Of a DNA stretch of 64,000 nucleotides, positions 13,394 to 31,350 are shown in pieces (position 1 is the first letter of the stretch; each line of letters opens with the position of its first letter). This stretch comes from Chloroflexota bacterium (GTDB lineage Bacteria > Chloroflexota > UBA11872 > VXNJ01): NCBI GenBank assembly GCA_965208775.1, contig OZ242360.1, forward strand, positions 126,085-190,084. Direction: 5' to 3'. The notes beneath the pieces are model-generated. The model saw nothing but the letters and a program-made list of their open reading frames with translations, did no database searches and was not told where the DNA came from. The translations under genes and the position numbers were made by a program.

Positions 13394-15685
13394 TCAACTT
13401 GACTCATAACTGTAGACCCTATCCTCAAGCAGTCCGAGGTCGAGTCCAAAGTAGTAGTCGAGTATTGCCCTGAAGTGGTTGACCGAAGTAATCGAGGGAT
13501 ACACGGCACTCTCGCCGCCCTCGGGAAGCAGGAACGCGGCCAGGATGTCGTGGCTGATCGAGGGATCGTGTTTTTCGTGTCCGTGGTCTCCGGCGATGAC
13601 GATTATCGGAGTTTGTTCCGAGTTGTCGAGTATCGCGTCGACGACTTCCAACATCTGGCCGTTCAGCCAAATGAGCTGACCATAGAATGCTCCGGGAACC
13701 GAGGGATCGTGGTCATCCTGCCAGCTTGCCCCGTCGAACCTGACGTTTCCATGCTTGTCGAACGAATAGGGGCCATGCGGTTTTATCAAATGCGCGACTA
13801 CAAACTTCGGCCCGTCCCAGATTCCGACTTCCTTCATGAATTCCAGCCAATCGAGAGCCCGTTGCGGATGCCCGAAACCGTAGGACCTGTGTTGCGTGCC
13901 AAATTCGGGCGAGAGGAGCAGATTCGCCACGGTTGTCTGCAAGAGCGCCGCGGCAAATCTGCCAGACAGGTGAGTTGTCCGTTCGAGCCGGAACGTTTCC
14001 CTAGTCTCCTCTCCGCTGAATAGGGTGCCCGAGGGGCTGAAGTCCACCACGACGTGCGCGGTGCTGTTGAAATTGGTCAATTCGAAACCAGAGGAGATAT
14101 GCAGATATCTATACCCAATGGTCATCAGGATTTGTCCCAATGCGTGAGCGTCTATCTGCGCTCGGAGACGTCGATAGGCCGCTTGCCTGTTGGTATCGAA
14201 GTACTCGGCGTCAACATATTCCATATTCAGGGTTGAAGTTGCTGAATGGTAAGTCCGAGCGTAGTTACTGCGAGCTTGTGGGGCCACGTAGAAGCCGCGG
14301 TTTTCCAGTTGCTGCACGAATTCGCTGTTGTCGAACTGCGGAGGCGAACCGCTCCTGGGATATTCATCCAGGATGATGTAATAGATGTCTCTAAGTTGAT
14401 CTCTTGAGAGTCTGTCCCTGGCTTCGGCGAGCCGTTCGTCGAGTCCCGGGAAACCGTCGAAAGGGTCAACGTCCTGTGGTCGGCTGCCTGCGTAGAAATC
14501 GGTGGCGATCTGGTAAATGGGCAAGAGAACAAGCAAAACGCTGCCCAGGTTGAGCGTCAGACCCAGCTTGCGCGTGAGGCCGGGATGTCGAGTTAGGAGC
14601 GCCCCGAGACCGAGAACGGTCGGTACGCCTAACCCAAGAAGATACCTGTCATCGGCGTGATCGCCCAGGGCGACGTATATGTGACCGTATGAGAAGAACG
14701 CGATTCCGAGCAGACCCGTAAGCGCCGCCGCCACGGTGGCTGTTTTGAAGATGAGCCGCAATGCCACGAAGGTGACCGTGACGGCCGCCATGGTGACCGC
14801 GAAGACGGCGATCGACTCGGAGACGCGAAACAAGAACAGGTTGCTGGAGAGATAGTGCAATATCGCGAAGGCGGGTATCAGCCACGGAAACACGTAGATG
14901 GCGCGCCGCGCGGTTGAAGTGCGAACAGACGATGCCTGATCCACACGGCGGCCCGGCGGTAGTCGCAGGACCGCCCGAACCCGGCCGGCCAGGGACACAA
15001 ACCCAATTCGCATCCTCCGCGTGGTGTTGCGCAGAGGTCGGGAGACCAGAGGCTGCGACAGTACCGTTATCGCGATTGCCAGCGCTGCGGCCGCCGGCGC
15101 TCCCGCCAGGCGCGCAAGGTCCGGCGTCGATCCCTCGAGAGCGGCCTGCCAACCCCTGCCCTTCCAGACGAACTCATGCGCGAGCGGGCCGTACTCCGTC
15201 GGCTGACGATGTATGGTTACAGACGCGCCAGTTCCCGGCTCGCTGGTCCCGAACATTACGTTGTAGTCCAGCTTCCGTTCCGCTCCGCGCTCCGTTGATA
15301 CCCAGAGTTGCAACGTGAGTTCTTCGCCGGGGGCAGGCCGGTAGGGCGGGAAAACGAGAACATACGCATCCAATTGCTTGCTCGCCCTGATTGAAACTTT
15401 GACCTGCCGCACAGGCTCTTCGGCATCTCCGCCAAGCAACGAGGCGACGACCGGCGCCTCGCCGCGGTCAAAGCGGGCGCGGGCCCAAATACGGACCTCT
15501 GAAACGATGTCGACGTCGTCCAGGACTTGCTCGACTGTTTGGTCGGGCCAGACGGGATCCGTGAGGTCGATAACCCCGCCCGAAGACCGCGAAACGAAGC
15601 TTGTTTGGGGCAGCAGGCTCGCCAGCAGCCCAATACTCACCAGAGCGAGAACAGCCGGTATCAGCCGGGAACGAACCATGTTCAC
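13394..15685 (-). CDS. LtaS-like paralog 1: membrane-anchored alkaline-phosphatase-superfamily (LtaS/sulfatase-like) protein.
   Basis: The 763-aa ORF has an N-terminal signal anchor, a ~170-aa ectodomain, about five TM helices, and a C-terminal domain with ILDEYPRSG and IIVIAGDHGHE motifs typical of LtaS/sulfatase-like phosphotransferases. Confidence 0.7.
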   Translation of the reverse strand: MNMVRSRLIPAVLALVSIGLLASLLPQTSFVSRSSGGVIDLTDPVWPDQTVEQVLDDVDIVSEVRIWARARFDRGEAPVVASLLGGDAEEPVRQVKVSIRASKQLDAYVLVFPPYRPAPGEELTLQLWVSTERGAERKLDYNVMFGTSEPGTGASVTIHRQPTEYGPLAHEFVWKGRGWQAALEGSTPDLARLAGAPAAAALAIAITVLSQPLVSRPLRNTTRRMRIGFVSLAGRVRAVLRLPPGRRVDQASSVRTSTARRAIYVFPWLIPAFAILHYLSSNLFLFRVSESIAVFAVTMAAVTVTFVALRLIFKTATVAAALTGLLGIAFFSYGHIYVALGDHADDRYLLGLGVPTVLGLGALLTRHPGLTRKLGLTLNLGSVLLVLLPIYQIATDFYAGSRPQDVDPFDGFPGLDERLAEARDRLSRDQLRDIYYIILDEYPRSGSPPQFDNSEFVQQLENRGFYVAPQARSNYARTYHSATSTLNMEYVDAEYFDTNRQAAYRRLRAQIDAHALGQILMTIGYRYLHISSGFELTNFNSTAHVVVDFSPSGTLFSGEETRETFRLERTTHLSGRFAAALLQTTVANLLLSPEFGTQHRSYGFGHPQRALDWLEFMKEVGIWDGPKFVVAHLIKPHGPYSFDKHGNVRFDGASWQDDHDPSVPGAFYGQLIWLNGQMLEVVDAILDNSEQTPIIVIAGDHGHEKHDPSISHDILAAFLLPEGGESAVYPSITSVNHFRAILDYYFGLDLGLLEDRVYSYESS
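14240..15685. repeat. Inverted-repeat arm A (~1.45 kb), ~95% identical to the reverse complement of 26702..28147.
   Basis: Codons 1–~483 of paralogs 1 and 2 are near-identical. I aligned DNA stretches by eye and found few mismatches. The end coordinates are approximate. Confidence 0.8.
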
Positions 15686-15689
15686 CGTC

Positions 15690-16940
15690 TTATGGCAGCT
15701 CCCACCTAACGGTGTGCACGACCGACCGACCGGATTCCTCCGGCTCCTGGTAGTAGGGAGACAGCGCGTAGATCGTTAGCAGCGTGCCGTCGGCCAGCTG
15801 ACGGGTAGTCGGCCAGCCGTTGCTCGGACCGTTGCTGATCGATAGCTGGATGGGATGATCGAAGTCCCAAGTCTCGCCCAGATCGTTACTCACGACCGCG
15901 CCCGTGCCGAACGGCAGGTGATAGTTGAGATGGGTGCAGAGGATTCGCCCGTCGCTGAGCAACGCCAGATGCGCGTGAACTTCGCTGTAGTTGAGGAAGT
16001 CCCTCGGTTCGGTCCAGGTCCGGCCTCCGTCGGCGCTTTCCATCAACACGATATGCCCGGCTGCGTGATCGTTGGGTACCGAGCCGGGCGGGTGAGGCGG
16101 GGAAGTGCCCTCGATGGGATGGTCATACTCGAACCGGCTTGTCGCCAGCAGCCGTCCGTCGGGAAGGCTCAGGAAGTCGGACTCCACGAACATCGCGAAC
16201 GAGTCGTCCCAGACCTCGACCGGCTCCAGTTCGGACCAGCTTCGGCCACAGTCCGAAGAGTGGCGCAGCCATGCGCGGCAGTTGGCGGGCGCATCAGTTT
16301 TGGACCATCCTTCGTGGGTGCCCACGCAGCGCATGATCGAGATCGTGCCATCGGACTGGAAGATCGGCCCGCGGACTATCGATACCGACTGATAGCTCTC
16401 GCGCGGCGTTTCCATCGGAGTCATGGTCCACGTATGGCCGCCGTCTTCCGAGCGGCACACCGCATCGACACTTTCCCCCGTGAACAGCAGGCTTCCGTCG
16501 TCGAGGCACGTGAGCGAGTTTTCCTTGCCCAGCAGCGGCGTGTGCTCCATCGGTTCCCAACTGGCGCCGTTATCCCTGGAGATGTGCAGACGCACCGGCC
16601 AGTTCTTGAGCTGCGGCTCCTCGCCGAAGAACTCGTTCGGCGTGCCCGTCGGATACGGACTCGCTATCGAAGGATGAAGCATGTCGACCGGCGAAGCGAT
16701 GATGTCTCCATTGGGAAGGATGGCCATACTCGCCTTGTAAAGTCCCCGACCACCCATCTGCGACCTGACGGCGGGACGCTTCGAGAGCTGCGCGACCGAG
16801 TGGTAGTCCAGTCCCGTGTAACCGGTCAATCCGGCAACGTAATACTCCCCCACGCCGGCTGGTGACCATTCAAACGGCTCGGTTGGTTTTTCGATCATAT
16901 TGCCCTCCCACATCATCTGCCCGATGGCCGAAAGTACCAC
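15690..16940 (-). CDS. BNR/Asp-box repeat exo-α-sialidase-like glycoside hydrolase. GTG start at 16940, or ATG at 16916.
   Basis: Four Asp-boxes are present (SRDNGASW, SEDGGHTW, SSDCGRSW, SADGGRTW). A 4-bp gap to the downstream paralog-1 gene suggests co-transcription. Confidence 0.7.
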   Translation of the reverse strand: MVLSAIGQMMWEGNMIEKPTEPFEWSPAGVGEYYVAGLTGYTGLDYHSVAQLSKRPAVRSQMGGRGLYKASMAILPNGDIIASPVDMLHPSIASPYPTGTPNEFFGEEPQLKNWPVRLHISRDNGASWEPMEHTPLLGKENSLTCLDDGSLLFTGESVDAVCRSEDGGHTWTMTPMETPRESYQSVSIVRGPIFQSDGTISIMRCVGTHEGWSKTDAPANCRAWLRHSSDCGRSWSELEPVEVWDDSFAMFVESDFLSLPDGRLLATSRFEYDHPIEGTSPPHPPGSVPNDHAAGHIVLMESADGGRTWTEPRDFLNYSEVHAHLALLSDGRILCTHLNYHLPFGTGAVVSNDLGETWDFDHPIQLSISNGPSNGWPTTRQLADGTLLTIYALSPYYQEPEESGRSVVHTVRWELP

Positions 16941-17109
16941 GCCCCGCCGTAATCCGGCGGATTGCCAATGGGTCGAATGAGTCTGGTGCTAAATTACGCG
17001 TCATGCAACTGATTTCATCGAGCGCGCTTCCTTTCTCGCCCGCGCCCAGCCGTCACCCGTCCATCCGTGCGCCACGACGCACATGCCGCTCAGGAGGCAG
17101 TCAGCCGTC

Positions 17110-18594
17110 ATGAATTTCATAGTCGTCGTCTGCGATACCCTGCGCCGCGACCACGTCAGCGCATACTCCGCGCAGCCCGAGCGCTGGGAATCGGGCGGCG
17201 AGTGGGCGGTGGAGACACCTCACTTCGACCGTTTCGCCCGCAATGCCTGCGTGTTCGAAAACGCCTACATTGGATCGTTTCCGACCGTCCCCAACCGACG
17301 AGAGATATTCACCGGACGGTCGGTTTTCACCTACGCCGAGTGGGCGCCGCTTCCGGCTTCCGAGATTGTCATCTCCGAAACGCTCGCAAACGCCGGCTAC
17401 ACGACCATGCTCATTGCCGACACTCCGCACATCTTGCAGCGAGGTTTTCACTTCGACCGCGGATTCACCGCCTGGGATTGGATCAGGGGGCAAGAAAACG
17501 ACCGGCTTCGCACGGACCCGCAGCGAGTGGAGTTGCCCTCCGCGCCCCATAAGCTGCGGGAGCCGGAAATGACCATGGGGCAATACCTTCGCAACATCGC
17601 CGACTGGCAGGAGGAAAGCGACCGGTTCTGCCCGACCACCTTCACGCGGGCCAGCCATTGGCTGGAGCAAAACGCCAAGAACAAGCCGTTCTTCCTACAC
17701 GTCGACACATTCGACCCCCACGAACCCTGGGACCCCCCGCAATCCGATGCGGACCGCTACGACCCCGGCTACGAAGGCGAGCGCGTCACTTACCCGGTAT
17801 ACGGCTACTGGGAAGGCTTCCTGAGCCCGGCTGAGCTGCGACATTCGCACGCTCTCTATTGCGGCGAGGTCTCCATGGTCGACCGCTGGTTCGGCCGGAT
17901 CCTGGACACGATGGACAGGCTCGATCTTTGGGACGACACGGCGCTTATCCTCACCTCGGACCACGGGTTCTATTTCGGCGAGCACGGAATAATCGGGAAG
18001 AGCATTATCGAGCCGAACGGACCCGTTCGGCCCCATCCGCTGCTCTCCGAGGTCGCCCGCATCCCGTTGATCGCCCATATTCCCGGCATAACCGAACCGG
18101 GAATGCGGCCCGGCGGCTATATCCAGCCGCTCGACCTGATGCCGACGTTCCTGGAGTTGGCAAACCTCGATGCGAGCGAGGTGGCGAACGGCCGGTCTCT
18201 CGTCCCGCTGATCACCGGCCAGACCGACAAGCTGCGTGAGTTTGCGGTCTCGTCGCACAGCATCTGCGTCCCGCTGGCAGGACGTCCGAGCACCATTGTC
18301 ACGCCCGACTGGACGCTAGTCTTGGGAGCGCCGCATTCGGCTTCGGAGACCGACGGCGGGGCGCAGACCGACACTGAAGTCATCGACAGCCGCCGCCGTA
18401 GAGAACAGCCCAGCGATGCCGCCACCTGCCCGCAACTCTATGACAATCACGCCGATCCCGGCATGACCAATAACGTGATCGAGGACCATCCCGACGAAGC
18501 CGGCGACCTTCGAGACATGTACATCGGCTACATCGAGTCGGTCGGAACCGCGGAGGAATATGTCGCCCCCCGCCGCCAAGCGCGGCTACATTAG
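17110..18594 (+). CDS. Sulfatase-like hydrolase (alkaline-phosphatase superfamily).
   Basis: It has VVVCDTLRRDH and LILTSDHGFYFGEHG motifs. I preferred the start at 17110 because AGGAGG lies upstream of it, whereas the 17083 ATG itself precedes that Shine-Dalgarno site. Confidence 0.75.
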   Translation: MNFIVVVCDTLRRDHVSAYSAQPERWESGGEWAVETPHFDRFARNACVFENAYIGSFPTVPNRREIFTGRSVFTYAEWAPLPASEIVISETLANAGYTTMLIADTPHILQRGFHFDRGFTAWDWIRGQENDRLRTDPQRVELPSAPHKLREPEMTMGQYLRNIADWQEESDRFCPTTFTRASHWLEQNAKNKPFFLHVDTFDPHEPWDPPQSDADRYDPGYEGERVTYPVYGYWEGFLSPAELRHSHALYCGEVSMVDRWFGRILDTMDRLDLWDDTALILTSDHGFYFGEHGIIGKSIIEPNGPVRPHPLLSEVARIPLIAHIPGITEPGMRPGGYIQPLDLMPTFLELANLDASEVANGRSLVPLITGQTDKLREFAVSSHSICVPLAGRPSTIVTPDWTLVLGAPHSASETDGGAQTDTEVIDSRRRREQPSDAATCPQLYDNHADPGMTNNVIEDHPDEAGDLRDMYIGYIESVGTAEEYVAPRRQARLH

Positions 18595-18710
18595 CTCTTC
18601 GATTTATCTCGCCACATTTGCGTGTCCACTGACAGGCCCCAAATGGCGACGGGCTAGCGGTGCGATGACCCGCTGCTTGTATTCATTCGCTCCGACTATC
18701 AATATACGGA

Positions 18711-19853
18711 TTGCGAAGTCGGGTATCAGCCGGATATTGCGGACGCGGTGAAGGAATTGCCTTGAATCGACTCAAAATCGGCGTGATCGGGTGCGGGGCC
18801 ATAGCCCAGATTCAGCACCTGCCGCATCTGCGCGAGCTTGACGACCAGTTCGAGATCGGCGGAATCTGCGACATCTCGGACTACCTCCTGGGTAAAGTCG
18901 GCGACGACTTCCACGTTCCCGCCGCCAGGCGATTCAGCGATTATCACGAGCTTCTGGCTAGCGACATCGACGGGGTGATCGTCTGCTCCTCCGGCAACCA
19001 CGTCGCGCCCACACTGGCGGCAATCGGGGCGGGCAAGCACGTGCTCGTCGAAAAGCCCGCGTGCACCACAGTCGACGAGGCCCGCGAGATGACGCGGACC
19101 GCCGAGGAGGCGGGCGTGGTTTTCATGGTGGCTTACATGAAGCGATACGACCCCGGATTCATTTTTGCCAAGCAACGGATCGCTCGCATGGGAGAAGTCA
19201 GCTTCGTGCAGGTCAATCACTTTCATCCCGACAACGAGCTGCATACCGCCGAGTTCAGGTTTCACAGGGCTATCGACATCCCTCCCGAAGCACGGGAAGC
19301 CGCCCTGGCCGAGGACAACGCCGAAGTTGACGCTGCTCTCGGATTGCAACCGGCCAGTCCTGATCAGCGAGGGGCGTTCAACCTGATACTCGGAAGCCTG
19401 ATTCACGACATCGGAAACCTCCACGGGCTGTTCGGACCGCCGGAACGCGTGCTGCATACGGAAATCTGGCTGGGCGGACGGGCCGTATCGACAATGCTGG
19501 AATACCCGGGCGGCATACGTGCCGTGATGAACTGGGTCGATCTGCCCGAATTGTGGGACTTCGAGGAGACGCTCGCCGTTTATGGAAGTCGCGAGCGTGT
19601 GACCGTATCCTTTCCTACCGGTTTCGCGCGAGGACTTACGACGGACGTCACAGTTGTCGAAATCGACGGTGAGTTGAATCCGTCGAGAAAGTTCGCGCAG
19701 TGGCACGAGAACGCGTTCAAGAACGAGCTGGCGCATTTCGGCGACTGCATCAGCAACGGCCGAGAGCCGACTACTCCCGGACGCGAAGTGATCGACGATA
19801 CGACTCTCGTTCGGGAGATCGTTCTGGCTTGGCAGGGTAATGGAGCAAACTGA
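18711..19853 (+). CDS. Gfo/Idh/MocA-family oxidoreductase. The exact start is uncertain.
   Basis: Rossmann motif LKIGVIGCGAIA is present. The stop overlaps the next start (TGATG). Confidence 0.75.
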   Translation: MRSRVSAGYCGRGEGIALNRLKIGVIGCGAIAQIQHLPHLRELDDQFEIGGICDISDYLLGKVGDDFHVPAARRFSDYHELLASDIDGVIVCSSGNHVAPTLAAIGAGKHVLVEKPACTTVDEAREMTRTAEEAGVVFMVAYMKRYDPGFIFAKQRIARMGEVSFVQVNHFHPDNELHTAEFRFHRAIDIPPEAREAALAEDNAEVDAALGLQPASPDQRGAFNLILGSLIHDIGNLHGLFGPPERVLHTEIWLGGRAVSTMLEYPGGIRAVMNWVDLPELWDFEETLAVYGSRERVTVSFPTGFARGLTTDVTVVEIDGELNPSRKFAQWHENAFKNELAHFGDCISNGREPTTPGREVIDDTTLVREIVLAWQGNGAN

Positions 19854-20503
19854 TGGGCTTCGAGGTTTTCGACTACCGAAACGATCTCAAGAACGTATTC
19901 ATATCGCCTGAGATCAGGTCGCGATTCGTCGCGATGGAGCCGGGCGAAGTCTCGCAGCGGCACAGCCACGATCTCGGGCAGGAGATATTTCTGGTCTTGC
20001 AGGGCAGAGCCGAGTTCGAAATAGAGGGGCATCGAGAAGTGCTCGGGGTGGGGCAGCTCTGCGTTGCCGAGATCGACGAACAGCACTCCATTACGTGCCT
20101 CGGTGACGAGCCGATGATCATGTACCTCTCGGTAACTCCGCACGTCGAACCCACCCACACCAGATGGGACGGGCAGGGAAACAAGCTCCAGCCCAGCTAC
20201 GGTCCTTCAACCCGGCAGGAGCGGTCCCAGCACGACCCCGCGGCCGGCTTGTCGGCGGAAGAGCTTGCGGACAAGCTGGTCTCGTCGGCGCGGAAACTCT
20301 CGCGTGGAGCCGAGGAGGCGGCGAAGGTCCTGACCAGGTCCACGCCGGAGGCGGTAACGTCTCTTGACGAACGAGATCGGGAGTCTGGAATAAAGTCGCT
20401 AAACGAAATGTGGGCGCATGTCTTCACGGTCCTTGACGACGTGAGCAAAACCGAGCTTGCCTGGAACCAGTTCTCGGCAAGAATCGACGAATCGCTTCAA
20501 TGA
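19853..20503 (+). CDS. Cupin-domain protein with a ~100-aa helical C-terminal extension.
   Basis: It has a cupin-2 core (HSHDLGQEIFLVLQGRAEFEI…). The start codon overlaps the upstream stop by 1 nt. Confidence 0.6.
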   Translation: MGFEVFDYRNDLKNVFISPEIRSRFVAMEPGEVSQRHSHDLGQEIFLVLQGRAEFEIEGHREVLGVGQLCVAEIDEQHSITCLGDEPMIMYLSVTPHVEPTHTRWDGQGNKLQPSYGPSTRQERSQHDPAAGLSAEELADKLVSSARKLSRGAEEAAKVLTRSTPEAVTSLDERDRESGIKSLNEMWAHVFTVLDDVSKTELAWNQFSARIDESLQ

Positions 20504-20560
20504 ACGCACTGTTCCCCCGGTCGAATCGCTCGCAGCCCGTCTCAGAGCGCGAGGCGTCTA

Positions 20561-22633: not shown

Positions 22634-22662
22634 GCCTGCGTGACGCCCGAACATGAGCCAGC

Positions 22663-24465
22663 ATGAAGACTAGCGGCGAAATGTCGGCAACCGATCTCGT
22701 ATCGATGACCGTCGTTTACAACCGTCTCGTCGGAATTGTCGAGGAGATGGGCACGACAATGATGCGCGCGTCGTACTCCCCGATCTTCAGCGAGAGCCTC
22801 GACTTCTCATGCGTGCTGTTCGGCCGAGACGCAAACATGCTCGCCCAGACCGAGTTCTCGCCAGCCCAAGTTGGAGCCATCAGGTTCGTCGTCAAGTGGC
22901 TTATTGCGGAAATTGGCGAAGATAACCTGAAGCCGGGCGACGTCGTCGTGCACAACGACCCTTACCGCGGCGGCGCGCACATGCCCGAGCACGTCGTTAT
23001 CAAGCCGGTCTACTACAAGGGCGAGTTGTTCGGTTACGTGGCCAACATCGCCCACATGGTCGAGATCGGGGGAATGGCAGTCGGCGGATTCGCCGCCACC
23101 GCGACCGAGGTCTATCAGGAGGGTCTGAGACTCCCGCCAGTCTGGCTGATGCGAGAAGGCGAGTACAACCACGATATATGGCGCATCGTCATGGCGAACC
23201 ATCGCGCGCCGCGGTACTCGTGGGGAGACCTGCATGCCATGCTCGCGTCGCTGGACATCGCCGAAAAGCGCGTCCACGAGCTGCTCGACGCCTACGGCAT
23301 GGAGCGGATTGCGACTATCAGCGCCCAGCTTCAGGACTACGCCGAGCGCTGGATGCGGGAAGAGCTGCGCACCATTCCCGACGGCGAGTACACCTTCGAA
23401 GACCACATGGAGGACGCCAGCGATCCGCCCATGAAAGATTGGGTGCGGCTGAGAGTGGTAGTCGACGACGGCAGCATCATCGCCGACTTCACCGGAAGCG
23501 ACCCGCAGGGACCTCACGTCCTTAACTGCACTTACGGGGTCACTGCCTCCGGCGTCTACAACGCCATATTCAATCTCGTCGACGACGACATTCCTCACAA
23601 CGAAGGTTCCTACCGCCCCATCACCGTCATCGCGCCCCCCGGAACCATCACCAACGTCATGGAGCCGGGACCGTCGGTCGGCGGGAATACCGAGACGCAT
23701 CCCCGGCTGTGGGAGATCGTCCTCGGCGCGATGTCGAAGGCCGTCCCGGACCGCGTTGCCGCAGCCACCGGCGGCACCTCGTGCAACTTCCTGTTCGGCG
23801 GCGTACATCCGCACACCGGCCGCTTTTACGCGCACTATCACTTCGACGGCGTTGGCTGGGGAGGACGGTCGCACGCGGACGGAAACGACAATCTGTGCGT
23901 TCCCAACGGCAATTGCCGCGCCACGCCGGTGGAGATATTCGAGACCCGTTATCCCTTCGTCGAGTGGTCGTACCGGCTGCGCAACGATTCTGGCGGCCCG
24001 GGCGAGCATCGCGGCGGATTGGGCAGCGAGCGCGTTCTGGAGGTCCGAGCGCCGGAGATTAACGTCTCGGCACTGTATGACAGGATGGTCAGTCCGCCGT
24101 GGGGGCTGTTCGGGGGCGGAGACGCGGCAACTTCATCGCTGCTCGTAAGACGCGTGGGCGACGACAAGTACAGGACATTCCGCGAGGCCTATGGCACCAA
24201 GAGTAACTCCCGCATCGCCAACATCAAGTTGAAGCGCGGCGACCGCGTGATGCTTTGCAGCTCCGGCGGAGGCGGATTCGGGCGTCCGACCGACCGTCCG
24301 GCCGAGCTGGTGCTCGAAGACGTTCTGGACGGATACGTGTCGGTCGAAGCGGCCCGCGATCTTTACGGAGTCGAAATCGAGAGTTCCAACGGCGAGACCG
24401 TGCTCAACGACGACAAAACCGAGGCGCACCGCACCGCATCGCGCCCGGAAGGTGGAGCTTCGTGA
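22663..24465 (+). CDS. Hydantoinase B/oxoprolinase-family subunit (HyuB-like; acetone-carboxylase α-like).
   Basis: The 600-aa ORF is HyuB-type (…RLPPVWLMREGEY…, DPYRGGAHMPE…) and lies immediately downstream of HyuA. Confidence 0.85.
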   Translation: MKTSGEMSATDLVSMTVVYNRLVGIVEEMGTTMMRASYSPIFSESLDFSCVLFGRDANMLAQTEFSPAQVGAIRFVVKWLIAEIGEDNLKPGDVVVHNDPYRGGAHMPEHVVIKPVYYKGELFGYVANIAHMVEIGGMAVGGFAATATEVYQEGLRLPPVWLMREGEYNHDIWRIVMANHRAPRYSWGDLHAMLASLDIAEKRVHELLDAYGMERIATISAQLQDYAERWMREELRTIPDGEYTFEDHMEDASDPPMKDWVRLRVVVDDGSIIADFTGSDPQGPHVLNCTYGVTASGVYNAIFNLVDDDIPHNEGSYRPITVIAPPGTITNVMEPGPSVGGNTETHPRLWEIVLGAMSKAVPDRVAAATGGTSCNFLFGGVHPHTGRFYAHYHFDGVGWGGRSHADGNDNLCVPNGNCRATPVEIFETRYPFVEWSYRLRNDSGGPGEHRGGLGSERVLEVRAPEINVSALYDRMVSPPWGLFGGGDAATSSLLVRRVGDDKYRTFREAYGTKSNSRIANIKLKRGDRVMLCSSGGGGFGRPTDRPAELVLEDVLDGYVSVEAARDLYGVEIESSNGETVLNDDKTEAHRTASRPEGGAS

Positions 24466-24475
24466 ACGGCAATTC

Positions 24476-24701
24476 GATGGAAGAGCGTGACGAGCGTCAG
24501 ACCCACGAGGGGCGCTGGGAACAGCTGAACCGAAGCTGGTGGGACACCAAGGTCGTCAACTGCGAGATGTGCGGCCAGATGATCCCTCGCGACGTGTGGA
24601 AAAGCGCCGACGGCCACTCGTTTTGCTCAGTCGAATGCGATGATCTCTACCGCTCCTATTGGCTGCCGCGCTACGGCGGGAAGACGACGACACACGACTA
24701 G
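24476..24701 (+). CDS. Small (~75-aa) putative Zn-ribbon protein, possibly a γ-like subunit of the hydantoinase/carboxylase.
   Basis: It has a C4 pattern CEMCGQ…CSVEC and starts 11 bp after the HyuB stop. The gene order A–B–small matches acetone carboxylase acxABC. The six-frame track shows a longer overlapping form. Confidence 0.45.
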
Positions 24702-24777
24702 CAGCGCAGTCCCTCGGGGCTTGTCGTAACCGGGGCGCACACGATGTTGGAGGGGAGGCCTCGCCACCAGGCACCGG

Positions 24778-26313
24778 CTATTGGCGCGAAGCGGAACTCA
24801 GCCTCGTCATCAGATAGAGCCTGCGACCGGAATTTGCGATTGGGACGGCTCGTTCAGTAGAGAAGTATCGGCCAAACGCCTTTTCGAAGCTCTCCCGGTT
24901 ATAGCCTGGAAAAGAGTGATTCCTCAGGGCCAGCAGACGCTCGACTTTGGGGTCATCACGTGGAACATACTCGATGATCAACGACTTGCCCAGCGATGCG
25001 AAGAACTCGGCGAGCCTGCTGAGGGGCACGTTGTTGGTTATGGCCAGATGATGGACCAGGGCCAGCGCGATTACCGCATCCGTCGGCCCTCGATCCAGGA
25101 GCGACATGCGCTCCGTATTGGCCCATCCACTGGCGGGGCTAGGATTCGAAACGTCGGCAACTATTGGATACACCGTGGCATCTCGACTGCGGGCGACCTC
25201 CCGATAGCTGATTTCGATGGCTCCCGGATCGCTATCGATCGATATCACGCGCACACCCTGTTCAGCCGCGATCCGGGTGAATTCACCGGTGTTGGCTCCG
25301 ATATCCCAAGCCTCCACGGGGCCAACGCTGCGAAGATACTCGGCTACCAGCCCCTTCTTGCTATCGAATCCGGCGTCGTCGTAGCTCTCGCCCTGGTAAT
25401 AGTCTGACCACTCGCTCACCTCGGGATCCCAGCCGAGACTACTCACTGTCGATCTCAGATTGTTCAGGATGGTAAGCAGCCCTTTACGGCTCATCCGTCC
25501 TCGAAAGTCCTTGCGCGTGCTTGCTTTGCCCGCCTGGCGGACCTGCAATTTGGCGTGTGAGAACAGATGCATCGCAAGGCCGGGCCGTAAGCGACTTCGC
25601 AGCGGCAACAGGCGAGCCGCCAGCGCCAGCGGTATTCCGTCAAGATGCACCTCAAGTAAGCGGCCCAGGCTTACGTCCCGAAGCGCCATCAGAGCCAAAG
25701 GCGCCAGGAAATGCTGGCAAAACTGCTTGTACGCCACCCACGGGAAACCCTCTTCGTATTCCTCGAACGATAAAGTGTCCACAAGCGCGGGGCGGCCGCC
25801 GTGGAGCTGAATGTTGTAGGCGCTGGCATCCTTGAGCGACATCCCGAACTCGACAGCCCGAATCTGGATATCCAGCGTGACCAGAGCCGAGTCTCTAAGC
25901 TGGCTGAAGCACCATTCATACGGGTAGGAGATGAACGGTACTTGAGCCGGCTTCAGAATCCTGTAAGCCTGCTCGTCCTCCAGCCCGGCGGGCACCTCCT
26001 CATGAGGCAGCAGCAATCCATCCCGCACAAGGCCGTCATAGAGGCCGGAAGCCATCAGACGGTCATAGACCGGCCCATATGACTTGGCGACGTGACGGAA
26101 GACGCACCCGTCCCGCCGGAAGACGAATCCCGCCGGATCGCGAAACGATCCGGCTATCGCTTCATCGATCCCTATCGTCACCCGGCCCATCCACGGCTCT
26201 GCGATCAGCCTCGGTCGATTCCACATCCTCAAGGCTGGACACGGTGCCTCCGTCACCAGACGAGCGCCGGAAGATCCCGAGAATCCTGCGGAACCACAGC
26301 CCCACCGAAACAA
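24778..26313 (-). CDS. Two-domain protein: an N-terminal ~330-aa domain with a protein-kinase-like catalytic-loop pattern, fused to a C-terminal class I SAM-dependent methyltransferase.
   Basis: The C-terminal region carries SAM motif I (WDIGANTGEFTRIAAEQGVRVISIDSD). The N-terminal region has DASAYNIQLHGGRPALVDTLSFEE, resembling the HxD…N / D(F/L)(G/S) motifs. The start is probably internal (~26229 or 26190). Confidence 0.6.
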   Translation of the reverse strand: MFRWGCGSAGFSGSSGARLVTEAPCPALRMWNRPRLIAEPWMGRVTIGIDEAIAGSFRDPAGFVFRRDGCVFRHVAKSYGPVYDRLMASGLYDGLVRDGLLLPHEEVPAGLEDEQAYRILKPAQVPFISYPYEWCFSQLRDSALVTLDIQIRAVEFGMSLKDASAYNIQLHGGRPALVDTLSFEEYEEGFPWVAYKQFCQHFLAPLALMALRDVSLGRLLEVHLDGIPLALAARLLPLRSRLRPGLAMHLFSHAKLQVRQAGKASTRKDFRGRMSRKGLLTILNNLRSTVSSLGWDPEVSEWSDYYQGESYDDAGFDSKKGLVAEYLRSVGPVEAWDIGANTGEFTRIAAEQGVRVISIDSDPGAIEISYREVARSRDATVYPIVADVSNPSPASGWANTERMSLLDRGPTDAVIALALVHHLAITNNVPLSRLAEFFASLGKSLIIEYVPRDDPKVERLLALRNHSFPGYNRESFEKAFGRYFSTERAVPIANSGRRLYLMTRLSSASRQ

Positions 26314-26701
26314 CTCCGCCCAGCACCGCTGCGATCAGGATCTGTATCAGAAAGCTGCCGCTTCCGGGATCGAGATAAGGCAGAAATAGCAGCCTAACGA
26401 CGCTCAGGCTCGAGATCGAATTTCTACCCCCACCGCGAGCGTAATTCGACACATCACTCGCTGTCCCGGACCTGTTTCTAACCATCCAATACTCCCGCGA
26501 AGAGCGCTTTCTCACACCATTATGCATTTTGACGCGTAACGACGGTAAATGACCGCTTTCAGTCGGCCTTGGTAGGAAGCACAACGACGCAACTTCAATG
26601 GCGAAACACTGGTGGAAGTAAAATCCACCGACTTTATACATGGATTTCAGACAAGCGCCCCACCGGAAGCCAGAGTGGTAGATCGATGACACATCAGCTT
26701 C

Positions 26702-28147
26702 TTGCTTAGATCTCGCTTGCGGCTGATACCGGCTGTTCTCGTTCTGGTAAGTATTGGGCTGCTGGCGAGCCTGCTGCCCCAAACAAGCTTCGTTTCGCGG
26801 TCTTCGGGTGGGGTTGTCGACCTCACGGATCCCATCTGGCCCGACCAAACAGTCGAGCAAGTCCTGGACAATGCCGACATCGTTTCGGAAGTCCGTATTT
26901 GGGCCCGCGCCCGCTTTGATCGCGGCGAGGCGCCGGTCGTCGCCTCGTTGCTGCGCGGACAGGATGAACAGCCTGTGCGTCAGGTCAAAGTGTCAATTCG
27001 GGCGAGCAAGCAATTGGATGCGTATGTTCTCGTTTTCCCGCCCTACCGGCCTGGCCCCGGCGAAGAACTCACGTTGCAGCTCTGGGTCTCAACGGAGCGC
27101 GGAGCGGAACGGAAGCTGGACTACAACGTAATGTTCGGGACCAGCGAGCCGGGAACTGGCGCGTCTGTGACCATACATCGTCAGCCGACGGAGTACGGCC
27201 CGCTCGCGCATGAGTTCGTCTGGAAGGGCACGGGTTGGCAGGCCGCTCTCGAGGGATCGACGCCGGACCTTGTGCGCCTGGTCGGCGCATTAGCGGCAGC
27301 CGCCTTAGCCGTTGCCGTAACAATACTGTCGCATCCTCTGGTGTTCCGACCTCTGCGCAACACCGCGCGGAGGATGCGACTTGGGTTTGTGTCCCTGGCC
27401 GGCCGGGTTCGGGCGGTCCTGCGACTACCGCAGGGCCACCGTGTGGCTCAAGCATCGTCTGTTCGCACTTCAACCGCGCGGCGCGCCATCTACGTGTTTC
27501 CGTGGCTAATACCCGCCTTCGCGATATTGCACTATCTCTCCAGCAACCTGTTCTTGTTTCGCGTCTCCGAGTCGATCGCCGTCTTCGTGGTCACCATGGT
27601 GGCCGTCACGGTCACGTTCACGGTATTGCGGCTCATCTTCAAGACGGCCGCAGTGGCGGCGGCGCTTACGGGTCTGCTCGGAATCGCGTTCTTCTCATAC
27701 GGTCACATATACGTCGCGCTGGGCGATCACGCCGATGACAGGTATCTTCTTGGATTAGGCGTACCGACCGTTCTCGGTCTCGGGGCGCTCCTAACTCGAC
27801 ATCCCGGCCTCACGCGCAAGCTGGGTCTGACGCTCAACCTGGGCAGCGTTTTGCTTGTTCTCCTGCCCATTTACCAGATCGCCACCGATTTCTATGCAGG
27901 CAGCCGACCGCAAGACGTTGACCCTTTCGACGGATTCCCGGGACTCGAGGAACGGCTAGCCGAAGCCAGGGACAGACTCTCAAGAGATCAACTTAGAGAC
28001 ATCTATTACGTCATCCTGGATGAATATCCCAGGAGCGGTTCGCCTCCGGAGTTCGACAACAGCGAATTCGTGCAGCAACTCGAAAACCGCGGCTTCTACG
28101 TGGCCCCACAAGCTCGCAGTAACTACACGCGCACGTACCAGTCGATT
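26702..28147. repeat. Inverted-repeat arm B (~1.45 kb), partner of 14240..15685.
   Basis: See arm A. Identity ends close to the start codons on both arms, and the upstream regions differ. Confidence 0.8.
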
Positions 28148-28972
28148 CCCTCATCCCTGAACGCTAGCTACTTCGGTGAACTGGCTGGAGACGAGGAGCC
28201 CGCTCGACTTCAGGATATTGGAACAGTCGATGACCACCTTCTTGGCCGAATTCTGAAAGCTCTAGGGTACAGATACGTGCACGTTTCGTCGGGATACTTC
28301 TCGACCAAGACAAACCAAAACGCCGACCTTGTCGTTGACTTTGCGCCATCCGGAACCCTTCTCTCTGGGGCCGAAGCCCCGAAGGCGCTTGAAGAGACGA
28401 CACGCTTGTCAAGCAAGTTTGCAAACACTTTCCTGCGAACAACCGCAGCCCAGCCGTTCGTGTCCAAGGATTTCGACGTTGAGCCTGACGGCATTTACGG
28501 CTGGGGCAACCCATTCCGGACCCTGGCCTGGATCGAGTTCATGAAAGAAGCCGCGGCTGTCGATGGGCCAAAGTTCATATTCGCCCACCTTCTAAAACCG
28601 CATTCCCCTTACTCCTTCGATAGATTTGGAGCCATCAGCACGGATTTAGCCGGCTGGAGCGACGATCACGATCCCACGGTAAACAGCGCATTTTACGGTC
28701 AGCTCATATGGCTCAACGGTCAATTGCTCGAAGTTATCGACGCTGTACTCGACGACTACGACGAACCGCCGATTATCGTCGTCGCGGCAGACCATGGGCG
28801 CAAAGGTCCTTTCCGCAACGAGATCCTGGCGGCGTTCCTGCTTCCCGACGGCGGCGAGAGCGCCGTGTATCCCTCAATTACCTCAGTCAACCATTTCAGG
28901 GCAATCCTGGATTACTACTTCGAACTGGACCTCGGTCTGCTGGAGGACAAGGTCTATAGTCACCCGGGTTGA
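26702..28972 (+). CDS. LtaS-like paralog 2 (TTG start), a mosaic of paralogs 1 and 3.
   Basis: Residues 1–~483 are ~95% identical to paralog 1, and the C-terminal catalytic domain is closer to paralog 3. The DHG motif reads VVAADHGRKG rather than IAGDHGHE. Confidence 0.7.
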   Translation: MLRSRLRLIPAVLVLVSIGLLASLLPQTSFVSRSSGGVVDLTDPIWPDQTVEQVLDNADIVSEVRIWARARFDRGEAPVVASLLRGQDEQPVRQVKVSIRASKQLDAYVLVFPPYRPGPGEELTLQLWVSTERGAERKLDYNVMFGTSEPGTGASVTIHRQPTEYGPLAHEFVWKGTGWQAALEGSTPDLVRLVGALAAAALAVAVTILSHPLVFRPLRNTARRMRLGFVSLAGRVRAVLRLPQGHRVAQASSVRTSTARRAIYVFPWLIPAFAILHYLSSNLFLFRVSESIAVFVVTMVAVTVTFTVLRLIFKTAAVAAALTGLLGIAFFSYGHIYVALGDHADDRYLLGLGVPTVLGLGALLTRHPGLTRKLGLTLNLGSVLLVLLPIYQIATDFYAGSRPQDVDPFDGFPGLEERLAEARDRLSRDQLRDIYYVILDEYPRSGSPPEFDNSEFVQQLENRGFYVAPQARSNYTRTYQSIPSSLNASYFGELAGDEEPARLQDIGTVDDHLLGRILKALGYRYVHVSSGYFSTKTNQNADLVVDFAPSGTLLSGAEAPKALEETTRLSSKFANTFLRTTAAQPFVSKDFDVEPDGIYGWGNPFRTLAWIEFMKEAAAVDGPKFIFAHLLKPHSPYSFDRFGAISTDLAGWSDDHDPTVNSAFYGQLIWLNGQLLEVIDAVLDDYDEPPIIVVAADHGRKGPFRNEILAAFLLPDGGESAVYPSITSVNHFRAILDYYFELDLGLLEDKVYSHPG

Positions 28973-29079
28973 GCCACATGTTTAGTGCTTGCAACACGAC
29001 TGTATTAGGCTAGTACGCACTGGACATCGGCCTCGGTTCCTTGAATCGGTTGGCATGAACCGCGCGCTAGCACTCACAC

Positions 29080-31350
29080 TTGTCTAAATTTCGCCGCCCG
29101 CTGATCTCCGCCGTTCTCGTATTGGTCAGTGTCGGGCTGTTCGCAAGCCTGCTGCCTCAAACAAGCTTCGTCTCGCGGTCTTCCGGTGAAGTTGTCGACG
29201 CCATAGGTCCTGTTTGGCCCGACCAATCAGTCGAGCAAGTCCTGGATGGCGTCGACATCGTTTCAGAGGTCCGCATCTGGACCCGCGCCCGCTTTGACCG
29301 CGGCGAGGCGCCGGTCGTCGCCTCGTTGCTGCGCGGGCAGGATGAACAGCCTGTGCGTCAGGTCAGATTTCCAATCAGGCCGAACAAGCTCCTAGAGCCG
29401 AACGTTCTCGTCTTTCCGCCGTACCGACCTGCCCCCGGCGAAGAACTCACGTTGCAACTCTGGGTTTCAACGGAGCGCAGAGCAGAGCGGGAGCTGGACT
29501 ATTACGTGATGTTCGGGACCAGCGAGCGGGAATCCGGCGCGTCTCTTACGCTCAATAGTGAGCCGACTGACTACGGCCCTCTCGCTTACGAAGTGATTTG
29601 GAGAGGAACAGGTTGGCAAGCCGCTCTCGAGGGATCGACGCCGGACCTCGCGCGCCTTGCGGGAGGGCTGGCGGCCGCAGCGCTGGCAATCGCGATAACG
29701 GTACTGTCGCATCCTTTGGTCTCCCGAACTCTGCGCAATACCACGCGGAAGATGCGAATCGCGTTTACGTCCCTGGCCAGCCGGGTGCAGACGGCAATGC
29801 GCCTATCGCAGGACCGCCGAGCGTCTCGACCATCAGCCGCACGGCGTGCCTTCTACGTCTTTCCGTGGCTATTCCCCGCTTTCGCGATATTGCACTATCT
29901 CTCCAGCAACCTGGTCCTGTTCGGGCTGTCCGAGTCCATCGTGGTCTTCGTGATCACCATGGCGGCCGTCACGGTCACCTTCGTGGGATTGCGGATCATC
30001 TTCAAAACAGCCGCCGTGGCGGCGGCGCTTACGGGTCTGCTCGGAATCGCGTTCTTCTCATACGGTCATATTTACGTAGCCTTGGGCGACCACGCCGACG
30101 ACAGGTACCTTCTTGGATTGGGCATACCGACCGTGCTCGGTCTTGGAGCCCTGATAGCACGACGACCGGAAGCAGTCCGCACGACCATCCCGATTCTCAA
30201 TGTGGCAAGCGTTGTCCTACTCGCGGCGTCGGTGTATCAGATCGCCTCCCATTACTATGCGGCGAGTTCCCCACAACCCGATCAAGGTTCAGAAGCATCA
30301 GTCCCGCTTGAAGAAATCGTCACCGACGCGAAGACGCGAGTCCCCTCAAGCGAACTCCGGGACATCTATTACATCGTCCTGGACGAATATCCCAGAAGCG
30401 GTTCCCCGGAGCAATTTGACAACGCGGAGTTCATACAAGAACTCGAAAGCCGCGGCTTCTATGTCGCCTCCCAGGCACGCAGCAACTATCCAGAGTCGTT
30501 TATGTCCATACCCTCTTCCTTGAATATGGACTACGTAGGCGAGGACACCATACGGGGACCAGGGGAGACTGGCCGCCTCGTCGAAATGGCCGACGACCAC
30601 GCGCTGGGCCGCATTCTGAAAGCGCTGGGCTACCGGTATCTCCACGTTTCGTCAGGATGGTTTTTCACCAAGACAAGCCGCAACGCCGATGAGATCGTGG
30701 CATTCGCGCCTTCGGGCCGCATCCGTTCCGGGCCCGAAACCGCCCAGCCGCTTTCGTTCGACGAGGCCGCCCGCTTGTCAAACAGATTTACGACTACCTT
30801 CTTGCGAACGACCGCCATCAGGCCATTCCTGTCGCATGAATTCAGCGTTGAGCATGACGATCCCTATGACTCGACCCACCCGTTTCACACGCTCGCATGG
30901 CTCGAATTCATGAAAGAGATCGCGAGCATCGATGGACCGAAGTTTGTGTTTGCGCATTTAATGAGGCCGCACGATCCGTATTCGTTCGACAAGTCAGGGA
31001 ACATCACATTCGACCAGATCGGCTGGCGTGATGATCACGATCCCACGGTTGGCGGCGCGTTCTACGGTCAAGTCATCTGGCTCAACGGCCAGATGCTGGA
31101 GGTCATCGACGCCGTACTGGACGATTACGACGAACCGCCGATAATCGTGATCGCGGGAGACCACGGGCACGAACGGCATAATCCCACCATCGCTAATGAC
31201 ATACTCGCGGCGTTCCTGCTTCCCGACGGCGGCGAGAGCGCCGTGTATCCGTCAATTACCTCGGTCAACCACTTCAGGGCAATACTGGACTACTATTTCG
31301 GACTCGATCTAGGACTGCTTGAGGACAGGGTCTACAGCCCCGGTAGTTGA
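29080..31350 (+). CDS. LtaS-like paralog 3 (TTG start).
   Basis: The 756-aa ORF has the same architecture. It shares near-identical tracts with paralog 2 (e.g. GEAPVVASLLRGQDEQPVRQV) and the conserved C-terminal 50 residues. Confidence 0.7.
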   Translation: MSKFRRPLISAVLVLVSVGLFASLLPQTSFVSRSSGEVVDAIGPVWPDQSVEQVLDGVDIVSEVRIWTRARFDRGEAPVVASLLRGQDEQPVRQVRFPIRPNKLLEPNVLVFPPYRPAPGEELTLQLWVSTERRAERELDYYVMFGTSERESGASLTLNSEPTDYGPLAYEVIWRGTGWQAALEGSTPDLARLAGGLAAAALAIAITVLSHPLVSRTLRNTTRKMRIAFTSLASRVQTAMRLSQDRRASRPSAARRAFYVFPWLFPAFAILHYLSSNLVLFGLSESIVVFVITMAAVTVTFVGLRIIFKTAAVAAALTGLLGIAFFSYGHIYVALGDHADDRYLLGLGIPTVLGLGALIARRPEAVRTTIPILNVASVVLLAASVYQIASHYYAASSPQPDQGSEASVPLEEIVTDAKTRVPSSELRDIYYIVLDEYPRSGSPEQFDNAEFIQELESRGFYVASQARSNYPESFMSIPSSLNMDYVGEDTIRGPGETGRLVEMADDHALGRILKALGYRYLHVSSGWFFTKTSRNADEIVAFAPSGRIRSGPETAQPLSFDEAARLSNRFTTTFLRTTAIRPFLSHEFSVEHDDPYDSTHPFHTLAWLEFMKEIASIDGPKFVFAHLMRPHDPYSFDKSGNITFDQIGWRDDHDPTVGGAFYGQVIWLNGQMLEVIDAVLDDYDEPPIIVIAGDHGHERHNPTIANDILAAFLLPDGGESAVYPSITSVNHFRAILDYYFGLDLGLLEDRVYSPGS

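Follow-up and report, generated by a model that had tools for sequence, protein, structure and literature searches.

The locus and its three paralogs

The 64-kb stretch of Chloroflexota DNA analysed here (the window) carries three paralogous genes, W1, W2 and W3, for predicted membrane-anchored enzymes of the alkaline-phosphatase superfamily, and W2 is a mosaic. W1 (paralog 1; 13394-15685, minus strand) is an intact open reading frame (ORF) of 763 amino acids; W2 (paralog 2, the chimera; 26702-28972, plus strand) and W3 (paralog 3; 29080-31350, plus strand) are intact ORFs of 756 amino acids each. The original prediction had described three paralogs here; all are present as full-length genes and all sequence strings that it quoted were located. 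A tblastn search of the 64-kb window revealed no fourth copy, partial copy or fragment. W3 lies in tandem to W2, 107 nucleotides (nt) downstream of it, and W1 is found in the opposite orientation, 11 kb from W2/W3, with the 5' ends of W1 and W2 facing each other (head-to-head). From codon 6 on, W2 matches the database protein P0003 without a difference. The layout of W1 comprises a signal-anchor transmembrane (TM) helix, a beta-sandwich ectodomain, a second TM helix (TM2), a 5-TM core and a catalytic domain of the alkaline-phosphatase superfamily.

Mosaic structure of W2

W2 is composed of three parts: nt 1-18 of the gene are of the position-2 type, nt 19-1425 are of the W1 type and nt 1426 to the end encode a distinct catalytic module. 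The W1-type part forms one arm of a homogenised inverted repeat (26720-28126, plus strand), the other arm being gene nt 19-1425 of W1, approximately codons 7-475 (14261-15667, minus strand). These block edges were set from codon alignments; a repeat search returned the pair as 14226-15674 and 26713-28161, with a length of 1449 nt, 94% complementary and 11038 nt apart. Over gene nt 19-1425 W1 and W2 are approximately 94-95% identical, and identity is 90-99% in most 100-nt windows of the codon alignment. Past nt 1425 it is 37-69% for about 500 nt and then at most about 75% up to the conserved C-terminal tail. Ahead of the 5' edge at nt 19, W2 begins with 18 nt that are like those of the position-2 genes A2, D2 and C2 of other strains and unlike those of W1. 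The 3' edge (nt 1425/1426) is located directly after the invariant motif ARSNY, three codons ahead of the predicted nucleophile T478. The earlier description of W2 as a chimera tracking paralog 1 up to about residue 483 thus holds, with the switch at codon 475.

Informative sites, given in the order W1=W2 : W2=W3 : W1=W3, number 265:24:48 in nt 19-1425 and 76:132:85 in nt 1426-2120, where the counts favour W2=W3 (binomial p = 0.002 and 0.0001); in the tail they are star-like (7:8:11). Likewise, W2-W3 identity past nt 1425 (56-76%) is higher than that of W2 and W1, and the catalytic domain shares 63% of its amino acids between W2 and W3 and 52% between W2 and W1, in line with the prediction that it is closer to paralog 3. 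In a maximum-descent triplet test in the style of 3SEQ, in which W2 was the child, the observed descent was 63 and the largest permuted value 19 (0/5000). A PHI-like four-gamete test applied to 13 related genes yielded 0.448 versus a null of 0.497 +/- 0.004 (0/1000). Pairwise codon alignment together with a breakpoint-type test, as had been proposed with the prediction, therefore returned a strong recombination signal and no support for uniform divergence.

The synonymous divergence (dS) between W1 and W2 is 0.07-0.14 in most segments of codons 1-476, with 0.22-0.28 in codons 196-255 and 401-430, and it is saturated from codon 480. For W3 versus W1 or W2, dS is mostly 0.3-0.6 in codons 1-345, with a lower value of 0.17 for W1-W3 in codons 196-255; it increases to 0.85-2.6 in codons 346-707 and is about 0.6 in the tail. 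A single tree without recombination, in which the N-terminal two-thirds are simply under stronger constraint, would be compatible with a ratio of nonsynonymous to synonymous divergence (dN/dS) below 1 nearly everywhere and with the family-wide conservation of the N-terminal part and the tail. Uniform divergence with differing constraint is rejected because dS jumps at the block edge, from 0.07 to saturation across one codon boundary. Since the topology flips there as well and the permutations of the triplet and PHI-like tests never reached the observed values, we assign this explanation virtually no probability.

Comparison with other strains

Syntenic loci from other assemblies were compared: strain A (L004 and L007, one contig), strain B with gene B1 (L005), strain C (L006), strain D (L001) and strain E with gene E1 (L008). 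The flanks of strain A are about 92% identical to the window. The W1 orthologs B1, A1 (L007) and E1 are 91-93% identical to it along their full length, and the W3 ortholog is C3 in L006, which is 84-96% identical at the nucleotide level and frameshifted in L006. In strain A the W2 ortholog A2, which comes from another sample and was assembled independently, likewise has its junction at nt 1425. Since A2 shares the junction, the founding chimera predates the split of the W and A strains. This does not fit the patchwork of paralogs 1 and 3 that had been proposed for W2, if the main junction is taken as a fresh event; W2-W3 dS past the junction is saturated as well.

The quartet W1, W2, A1 and A2 shows which sequences have been exchanged since that split. 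Eight sites in nt 1-18 group the orthologs. In nt 19-1425, 26 sites group the paralogs, none groups the orthologs and one is a cross site, the 26 being spread from nt 66 to nt 1299. Past nt 1425 the orthologs are grouped by 225 sites versus 1 and 1. This reversal from 26:0 to 1:225 (paralog:ortholog) is a further argument against a single tree. If the intact B1 replaces A1, the counts for the block are 29:0:1. A1 and A2 are 97-100% identical over nt 95-1380, and W1 and W2 are 98-99% identical at nt 983-1180, the orthologs there showing 89-94%. The ortholog dS in the unconverted catalytic part (0.21-0.25) exceeds the paralog dS inside the block. On these comparisons, the W1/W2 block is a case of concerted evolution by interlocus gene conversion after strain divergence. 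The 26-29 paralog-grouping sites against 0 in nt 19-1425 bear out the claim that recombination or gene conversion is ongoing, and the comparison of orthologous loci in related genomes that had been suggested shows both a junction shared with A2 and a copy number that differs between strains.

A 1.45-kb repeat at 94% identity can confuse assemblers, and frameshifts in related contigs (A1, C3) show that the consensus is imperfect. It might thus be argued that near-identical repeats were collapsed or cross-joined during assembly. The junction at nt 1425 recurs in A2, from a different sample and assembly, and in the window the two arms differ at about 75 positions, each of them is collinear with its own flanks and the three ORFs are intact. 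An artefact is thus extremely unlikely.

Paralogs within a genome would likewise be more alike than orthologs if the W1-type N-terminal part had been duplicated recently and independently into the P2 locus, strain by strain. Such duplications would need the same edges, nt 19 and nt 1425, twice. In addition, the identity of W1 and W2 ranges between 90 and 99% within the block, and these patches of different age point to several short events. Mechanistically, this very improbable series of duplications would still be a non-reciprocal homologous replacement, which is gene conversion.

Short tracts inside W2

Two short tracts are superimposed on the block in W2. The first is a W3-like microconversion tract (26921-26987, plus strand; gene nt 220-286) encoding ...LLRGQDEQPVRQV..., and the matching W3 stretch is located at 29330-29365 (plus strand; gene nt 251-286; one mismatch). 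A tract of about 65 bp identical to paralog 3 had been predicted here. The tract is real and 67 nt long (gene nt 220-286), but W2 and W3 have one mismatch in it, at nt 258, and only nt 252-279 are diagnostic (window 26953-26980), with eight sites that differ from W1. A run of six consecutive W2=W3 sites was obtained in 0 of 5000 permutations. W3, C3 and C4 carry the tract and A2, A1, B1 and W1 lack it, which would make W3 the most parsimonious donor.

The second tract, which the earlier reader had missed, is private to W2 (27273-27345, plus strand; gene nt 572-644, 73 nt) and falls into the TM2 helix. At 24 nt it differs from all relatives sampled, the W2 ortholog A2 among them. Compared to W1, ten codons are changed synonymously and eight conservatively. 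It looks like a patch from a diverged, unsampled donor. Mutagenesis of the diversity-generating retroelement type was considered for this tract and rejected: the changes are not adenine-specific, and 10 of the 18 changed codons are synonymous. Neither the microtract nor the private tract occurs in A2, and both are therefore recent.

Catalytic module, C-terminal tail and selection

The catalytic remainder of W2 (28127-28819, plus strand) is anciently diverged from both W1 and W3. W3 was rejected as its source, since W2-W3 dS is 1.8 (saturated) and C4 (P0007) and P0013 are closer. The nearest sampled relative of the module is C4, the third tandem copy in strain C, with 67-79% nucleotide identity versus 64-68% for W3; P0013 is a further close relative.

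The conserved C-terminal tail is located at 28820-28972 (plus strand) in W2, 13394-13546 (minus strand) in W1 and 31198-31350 (plus strand) in W3. The last 50 or so residues had been described as almost invariant in all three genes, and this is true for the last 47 codons or so, with a proportion of nonsynonymous differences (pN) of 0.01-0.04, dS of 0.58-0.65 and dN/dS of 0.02-0.06. The tail is conserved across a family of 60 sequences. A recent conversion among the three window copies was rejected as its origin, given a dS of about 0.6 and the star-like site counts. The window tails thus seem to reflect mainly purifying selection. In strain C, the tails of C3 and C4 are 100% identical.

W2 had also been reported to carry substitutions in the metal-binding DHG motif (AADHGRKG versus AGDHGHE) that might alter catalysis. 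The substitutions are present as quoted; the catalytic core is intact and the substituted columns are variable, which does not suggest altered catalysis. Over 60 sequences D694 is invariant, H695 is present in 59 and G696 in 57, and W2 keeps all three. The W2 residues A693 and R697 are found in columns with the compositions G34/S22/A4 and H19/Y14/R7. In addition, W2 keeps D440, T478 and the histidine of the KPH motif.

Between paralogs dN/dS, determined as coarse segment averages, is 0.02-0.67 in all segments and pairs but one, W1-W3 in codons 196-255 (60 codons), where it is 1.12. Between orthologs it is 0.07-0.30. The pattern had been taken as a hallmark of a diversifying surface-exposed family; with dN/dS below 1 nearly throughout and a main process that homogenises the genes, this part of the prediction was not upheld.

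The same pattern elsewhere in the family

Patchy identity is not restricted to W2. Strain C contains three tandem copies (L006 5165-12238), the middle one being the frameshifted W3 ortholog, and between C3 and C4, patches with 88-100% identity stand out from a background of 55-80%. A3 of strain A (L004 10001-12280) has 46-94% identity to W3 per 100-nt window. Thus, the occupant of tandem slot 3 and the copy number vary between strains with flanks that are about 92% identical. A distant lineage with about 50% amino acid identity to W3 has three tandem copies (L089 10001-17693), of which F1 and F2 are 92-100% identical in the first 500 nt or so, the beta-sandwich module only, and 41-78% identical after it. 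These copies are located beside genes of the futalosine-pathway type (CofH_C and VitK2_biosynth matches) and PhyH genes.

Among 78 family proteins some pairs have a near-identical N-terminal part and a divergent catalytic part, and in others the reverse is found. The best single change-points fall mainly into four places, residues 187-188, 264-270, 429-432 and 476, and these coincide with domain borders or invariant motifs. The gene for a further member, P0033, adjoins a pair of transposase genes of the IS3 type (rve, HTH_Tnp_1) and a cluster for type I restriction-modification (L090 7353-8464 and 15544-20780), a context unlike that of the window.

Protein family and predicted function

An AlphaFold2 model of W3 (mean predicted local distance difference test score 81.5) contains TM1, a beta-sandwich (residues 27-177), TM2, a cytoplasmic helix, the 5-TM core (261-396) and the catalytic domain (428-756). 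The paralogs score 16.6-29.3 bits with PF00884 (Sulfatase) at a cut-off of 25, a marginal match that is weak for W1. NCBIfam returned no match for the long or the short forms of the family, and the isolated beta-sandwich and TM modules gave no match in Pfam. Full-length MCR-1 and EptA occupy the top ranks of a Foldseek search, along with arylsulfatases; LtaS is not the closest fold match. The designation as LtaS-like is thus too specific.

D435 and D694 do not vary, position 473 is occupied by T or S throughout, H695 is found in 59 of 60 sequences, and the nucleophile motif of the family reads S-N-Y-x-x-(T/S)-x-x-S-I-P-S-S-L-N. The motif of formylglycine sulfatases (S1), CxPxR/SxPxR, is absent at the nucleophile position. 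Because the nucleophile column is T/S and CxPxR is missing, we group the family with membrane-anchored phospho-group transferases and not with true sulfatases. Judged by the fold searches, it is a member of the alkaline-phosphatase superfamily with an architecture of the EptA/LtaS class. The nearest enzyme classes are the membrane-anchored transferases of this superfamily: EptA/MCR-1/EptC, LtaS/LtaP, PbgA, BcsG and GacH. With LtaS the family shares membrane helices followed by an extracellular sulfatase-fold domain, a Thr nucleophile and metal-ligand residues, whereas the additional N-terminal TM helix, the beta-sandwich and TM2 are not features of LtaS.

The core of 5-TM region and catalytic domain occurs widely. 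At E < 1e-30 it matched 8153 clusters (50% identity), mostly of 500-540 amino acids and without the beta-sandwich, and no curated family model exists for these clusters. The short form of about 500-540 amino acids (L009-L088; P0133-P0274) occurs in many metagenome collections and scores near or below the PF00884 cut-off. A search for closer relatives in metagenomes of the Joint Genome Institute (JGI) returned only short-form proteins with about 30% identity. Family members with high identity are confined to metagenome-assembled genomes of Chloroflexota, and sample and isolate names suggest that these come from sponge and coral metagenomes. A literature search gave no description of the family.

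Gene conversion between head-to-head paralogs

Taken together, it is very probable that W1, W2 and W3 are mosaics generated by interlocus gene conversion within nt 19-1425, with smaller tracts superimposed. W1 and W2 exchange sequence repeatedly and non-reciprocally over this block as head-to-head inverted repeats. The block is fenced by the loss of homology on both sides, the upstream sequences being unrelated and the catalytic modules sharing only about 45-60% identity past ARSNY. The founding chimera is older than the split of the W and A strains and conversion has continued since, so that paralogs in one genome became more alike than orthologs. Later small events added the tract of 28-67 nt from W3 to W2 and the 73-nt tract from an unsampled donor. 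Homologous recombination of the RecA type, with heteroduplex rejection where identity collapses, may carry out the exchange, and conserved motifs may serve as junction points for the exchange of modules. The enzymes are predicted to use a membrane lipid as donor of a phospho-substituent and an extracytoplasmic envelope glycan as its acceptor. The paralogs would have the membrane/lipid-donor module in common and differ in the acceptor-facing catalytic module, with a front end that is presumably compatible with different back ends.

Several points weigh against this interpretation. Strain A is the only other strain in which P1 and P2 are both found on one contig, and there the frame of A1 (L007 8929-11227) is broken by insertions of 1, 2 and 1 nt at gene nt 191, 709 and 1009; A1 is either a pseudogene or affected by consensus errors of long reads. 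The gene caller split A1 into fragments including products of 89 and 408 amino acids. B1, which gives the same quartet result, is from a different contig than A2. All of the tests were run as custom scripts. Neither the window nor 274 family proteins nor a degenerate-codon scan of JGI metagenome contigs yielded a donor for the private tract. With regard to function, the family profile gave nothing significant against PDB sequences (best E 0.2-0.28, arylsulfatase and EptA), and the biochemical role is deduced from fold, motifs and neighbouring genes.

It might also be possible that variation at the locus is programmed, either with cassettes as in pilE/pilS and vlsE or with an invertible 11-kb segment that swaps the catalytic module behind a promoter. 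The inverted-repeat geometry would permit an inversion, both protein domains are outward-facing, the content of the tandem slot varies between strains with about 92% identical flanks, and the module junctions recur across the family. All copies, however, are full-length intact genes and not silent cassettes, and dN/dS gives no signal of positive selection. The spacer has the same orientation as in the window in every strain where it could be compared (all of it in strain A, the part next to P1 in B and E), thus an inverted spacer was found in no strain, and there is no recombinase or invertase gene among the neighbours scanned. A reciprocal inversion alone cannot yield paralog-grouping sites. 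We therefore regard programmed variation as unlikely.

Gene conversion between the inverted copies might be part of a larger scheme, a modular kit in which four modules (beta-sandwich ectodomain, 5-TM core, catalytic first lobe and catalytic remainder) are re-assorted among 2-4 paralogs per genome at a small number of conserved motifs serving as junctions (residues ~188, ~265-270, ~430 and 476). This idea is speculative and we consider it rather doubtful. If it is correct, each strain of sponge-associated Chloroflexota would have its own repertoire of envelope-modifying enzymes, and the concerted evolution of the front end would ensure that all catalytic variants fit a single membrane/lipid-donor partner. 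As a bolder extension, the 11-kb segment may occasionally flip, thereby swapping the promoters of the two catalytic modules.

Similarity to known systems

Bacterial paralogs that evolve in concert through interlocus gene conversion have been described, for instance tufA/tufB (PMC6053082). The likeness lies in two copies per chromosome, paralogs that are closer than orthologs, and non-reciprocal, homology-dependent exchange. In enterobacteria, tufA and tufB are inversely oriented. Unlike in tufA/tufB, only codons ~7-475 are homogenised here and two different enzymes share one front end. The present case also differs in concerning an uncharacterised envelope enzyme of uncultured Chloroflexota, with tracts from a third paralog and an unsampled donor on top.

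A second group for comparison are variable surface families driven by gene conversion, among them hotspots of the M. tuberculosis PE/PPE type (PMC13061034). Neisseria pilE/pilS, Borrelia vlsE, Anaplasma msp2 and PE/PPE share with the present family short inter-paralog tracts, mosaics and strain-variable copy number or content. In contrast to these families there is no expression site with silent cassettes: the copies are complete, under purifying selection and homogenised, and they encode enzymes and not structural antigens.

Gene conversion between bacterial paralogs is textbook knowledge; the case presented here is unusually clean, domain-bounded and documented across strains. The conversion block keeps the membrane/ectodomain front end of two anciently diverged enzymes nearly identical in Chloroflexota of the symbiont type. 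One consequence is that whole-gene trees of the family are meaningless and that trees are needed for each module. In addition, a large uncharacterised relative of the EptA/LtaS class is brought to attention, and a strain-variable envelope locus could bear on the surface chemistry of symbionts.

Spacer and neighbouring genes

The 11-kb spacer between the inverted arms (15686-26701) contains genes (15690-26313) for a BNR/sialidase-like protein, a true sulfatase (strong PF00884 match), a GFO/IDH/MocA oxidoreductase, a cupin and hydantoinase/oxoprolinase A and B as well as a methyltransferase-like gene. This gene set resembles one for the degradation of glycans or organic matter and is apparently unrelated to the flanking envelope enzymes. 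W1 is located 4 nt downstream of a BNR-repeat gene. Upstream of W2, a scan for sigma-70 promoters gave no match and a scan for terminators gave a single terminator-like match, within the count expected from shuffled sequence. The neighbours of the paralogs include a GT2 glycosyltransferase, large polytopic membrane proteins (faint DUF2298), the BNR protein and the true sulfatase, which would fit an envelope-glycan setting.

The polytopic membrane proteins form a second paralogous family beside W3 (31524-33272, 33285-36077 and 40333-43101, all on the minus strand). One of its members, an ORF of 582 amino acids, is an internally deleted copy of a protein of 930 amino acids: nt 1-240 are 86.7% identical, and nt 577-1739 of the shorter gene match nt 1597-2780 in the longer one at about 69% identity. 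The member of 922 amino acids shows 32% amino acid identity, and faint DUF2298 is the only Pfam signal. The patchiness of this identity is a hint of conversion like that between W1 and W2. Strain A has three tandem full-length copies of the polytopic gene (918-928 amino acids; L004 12453-20804), showing that the copy number of this family varies as well.

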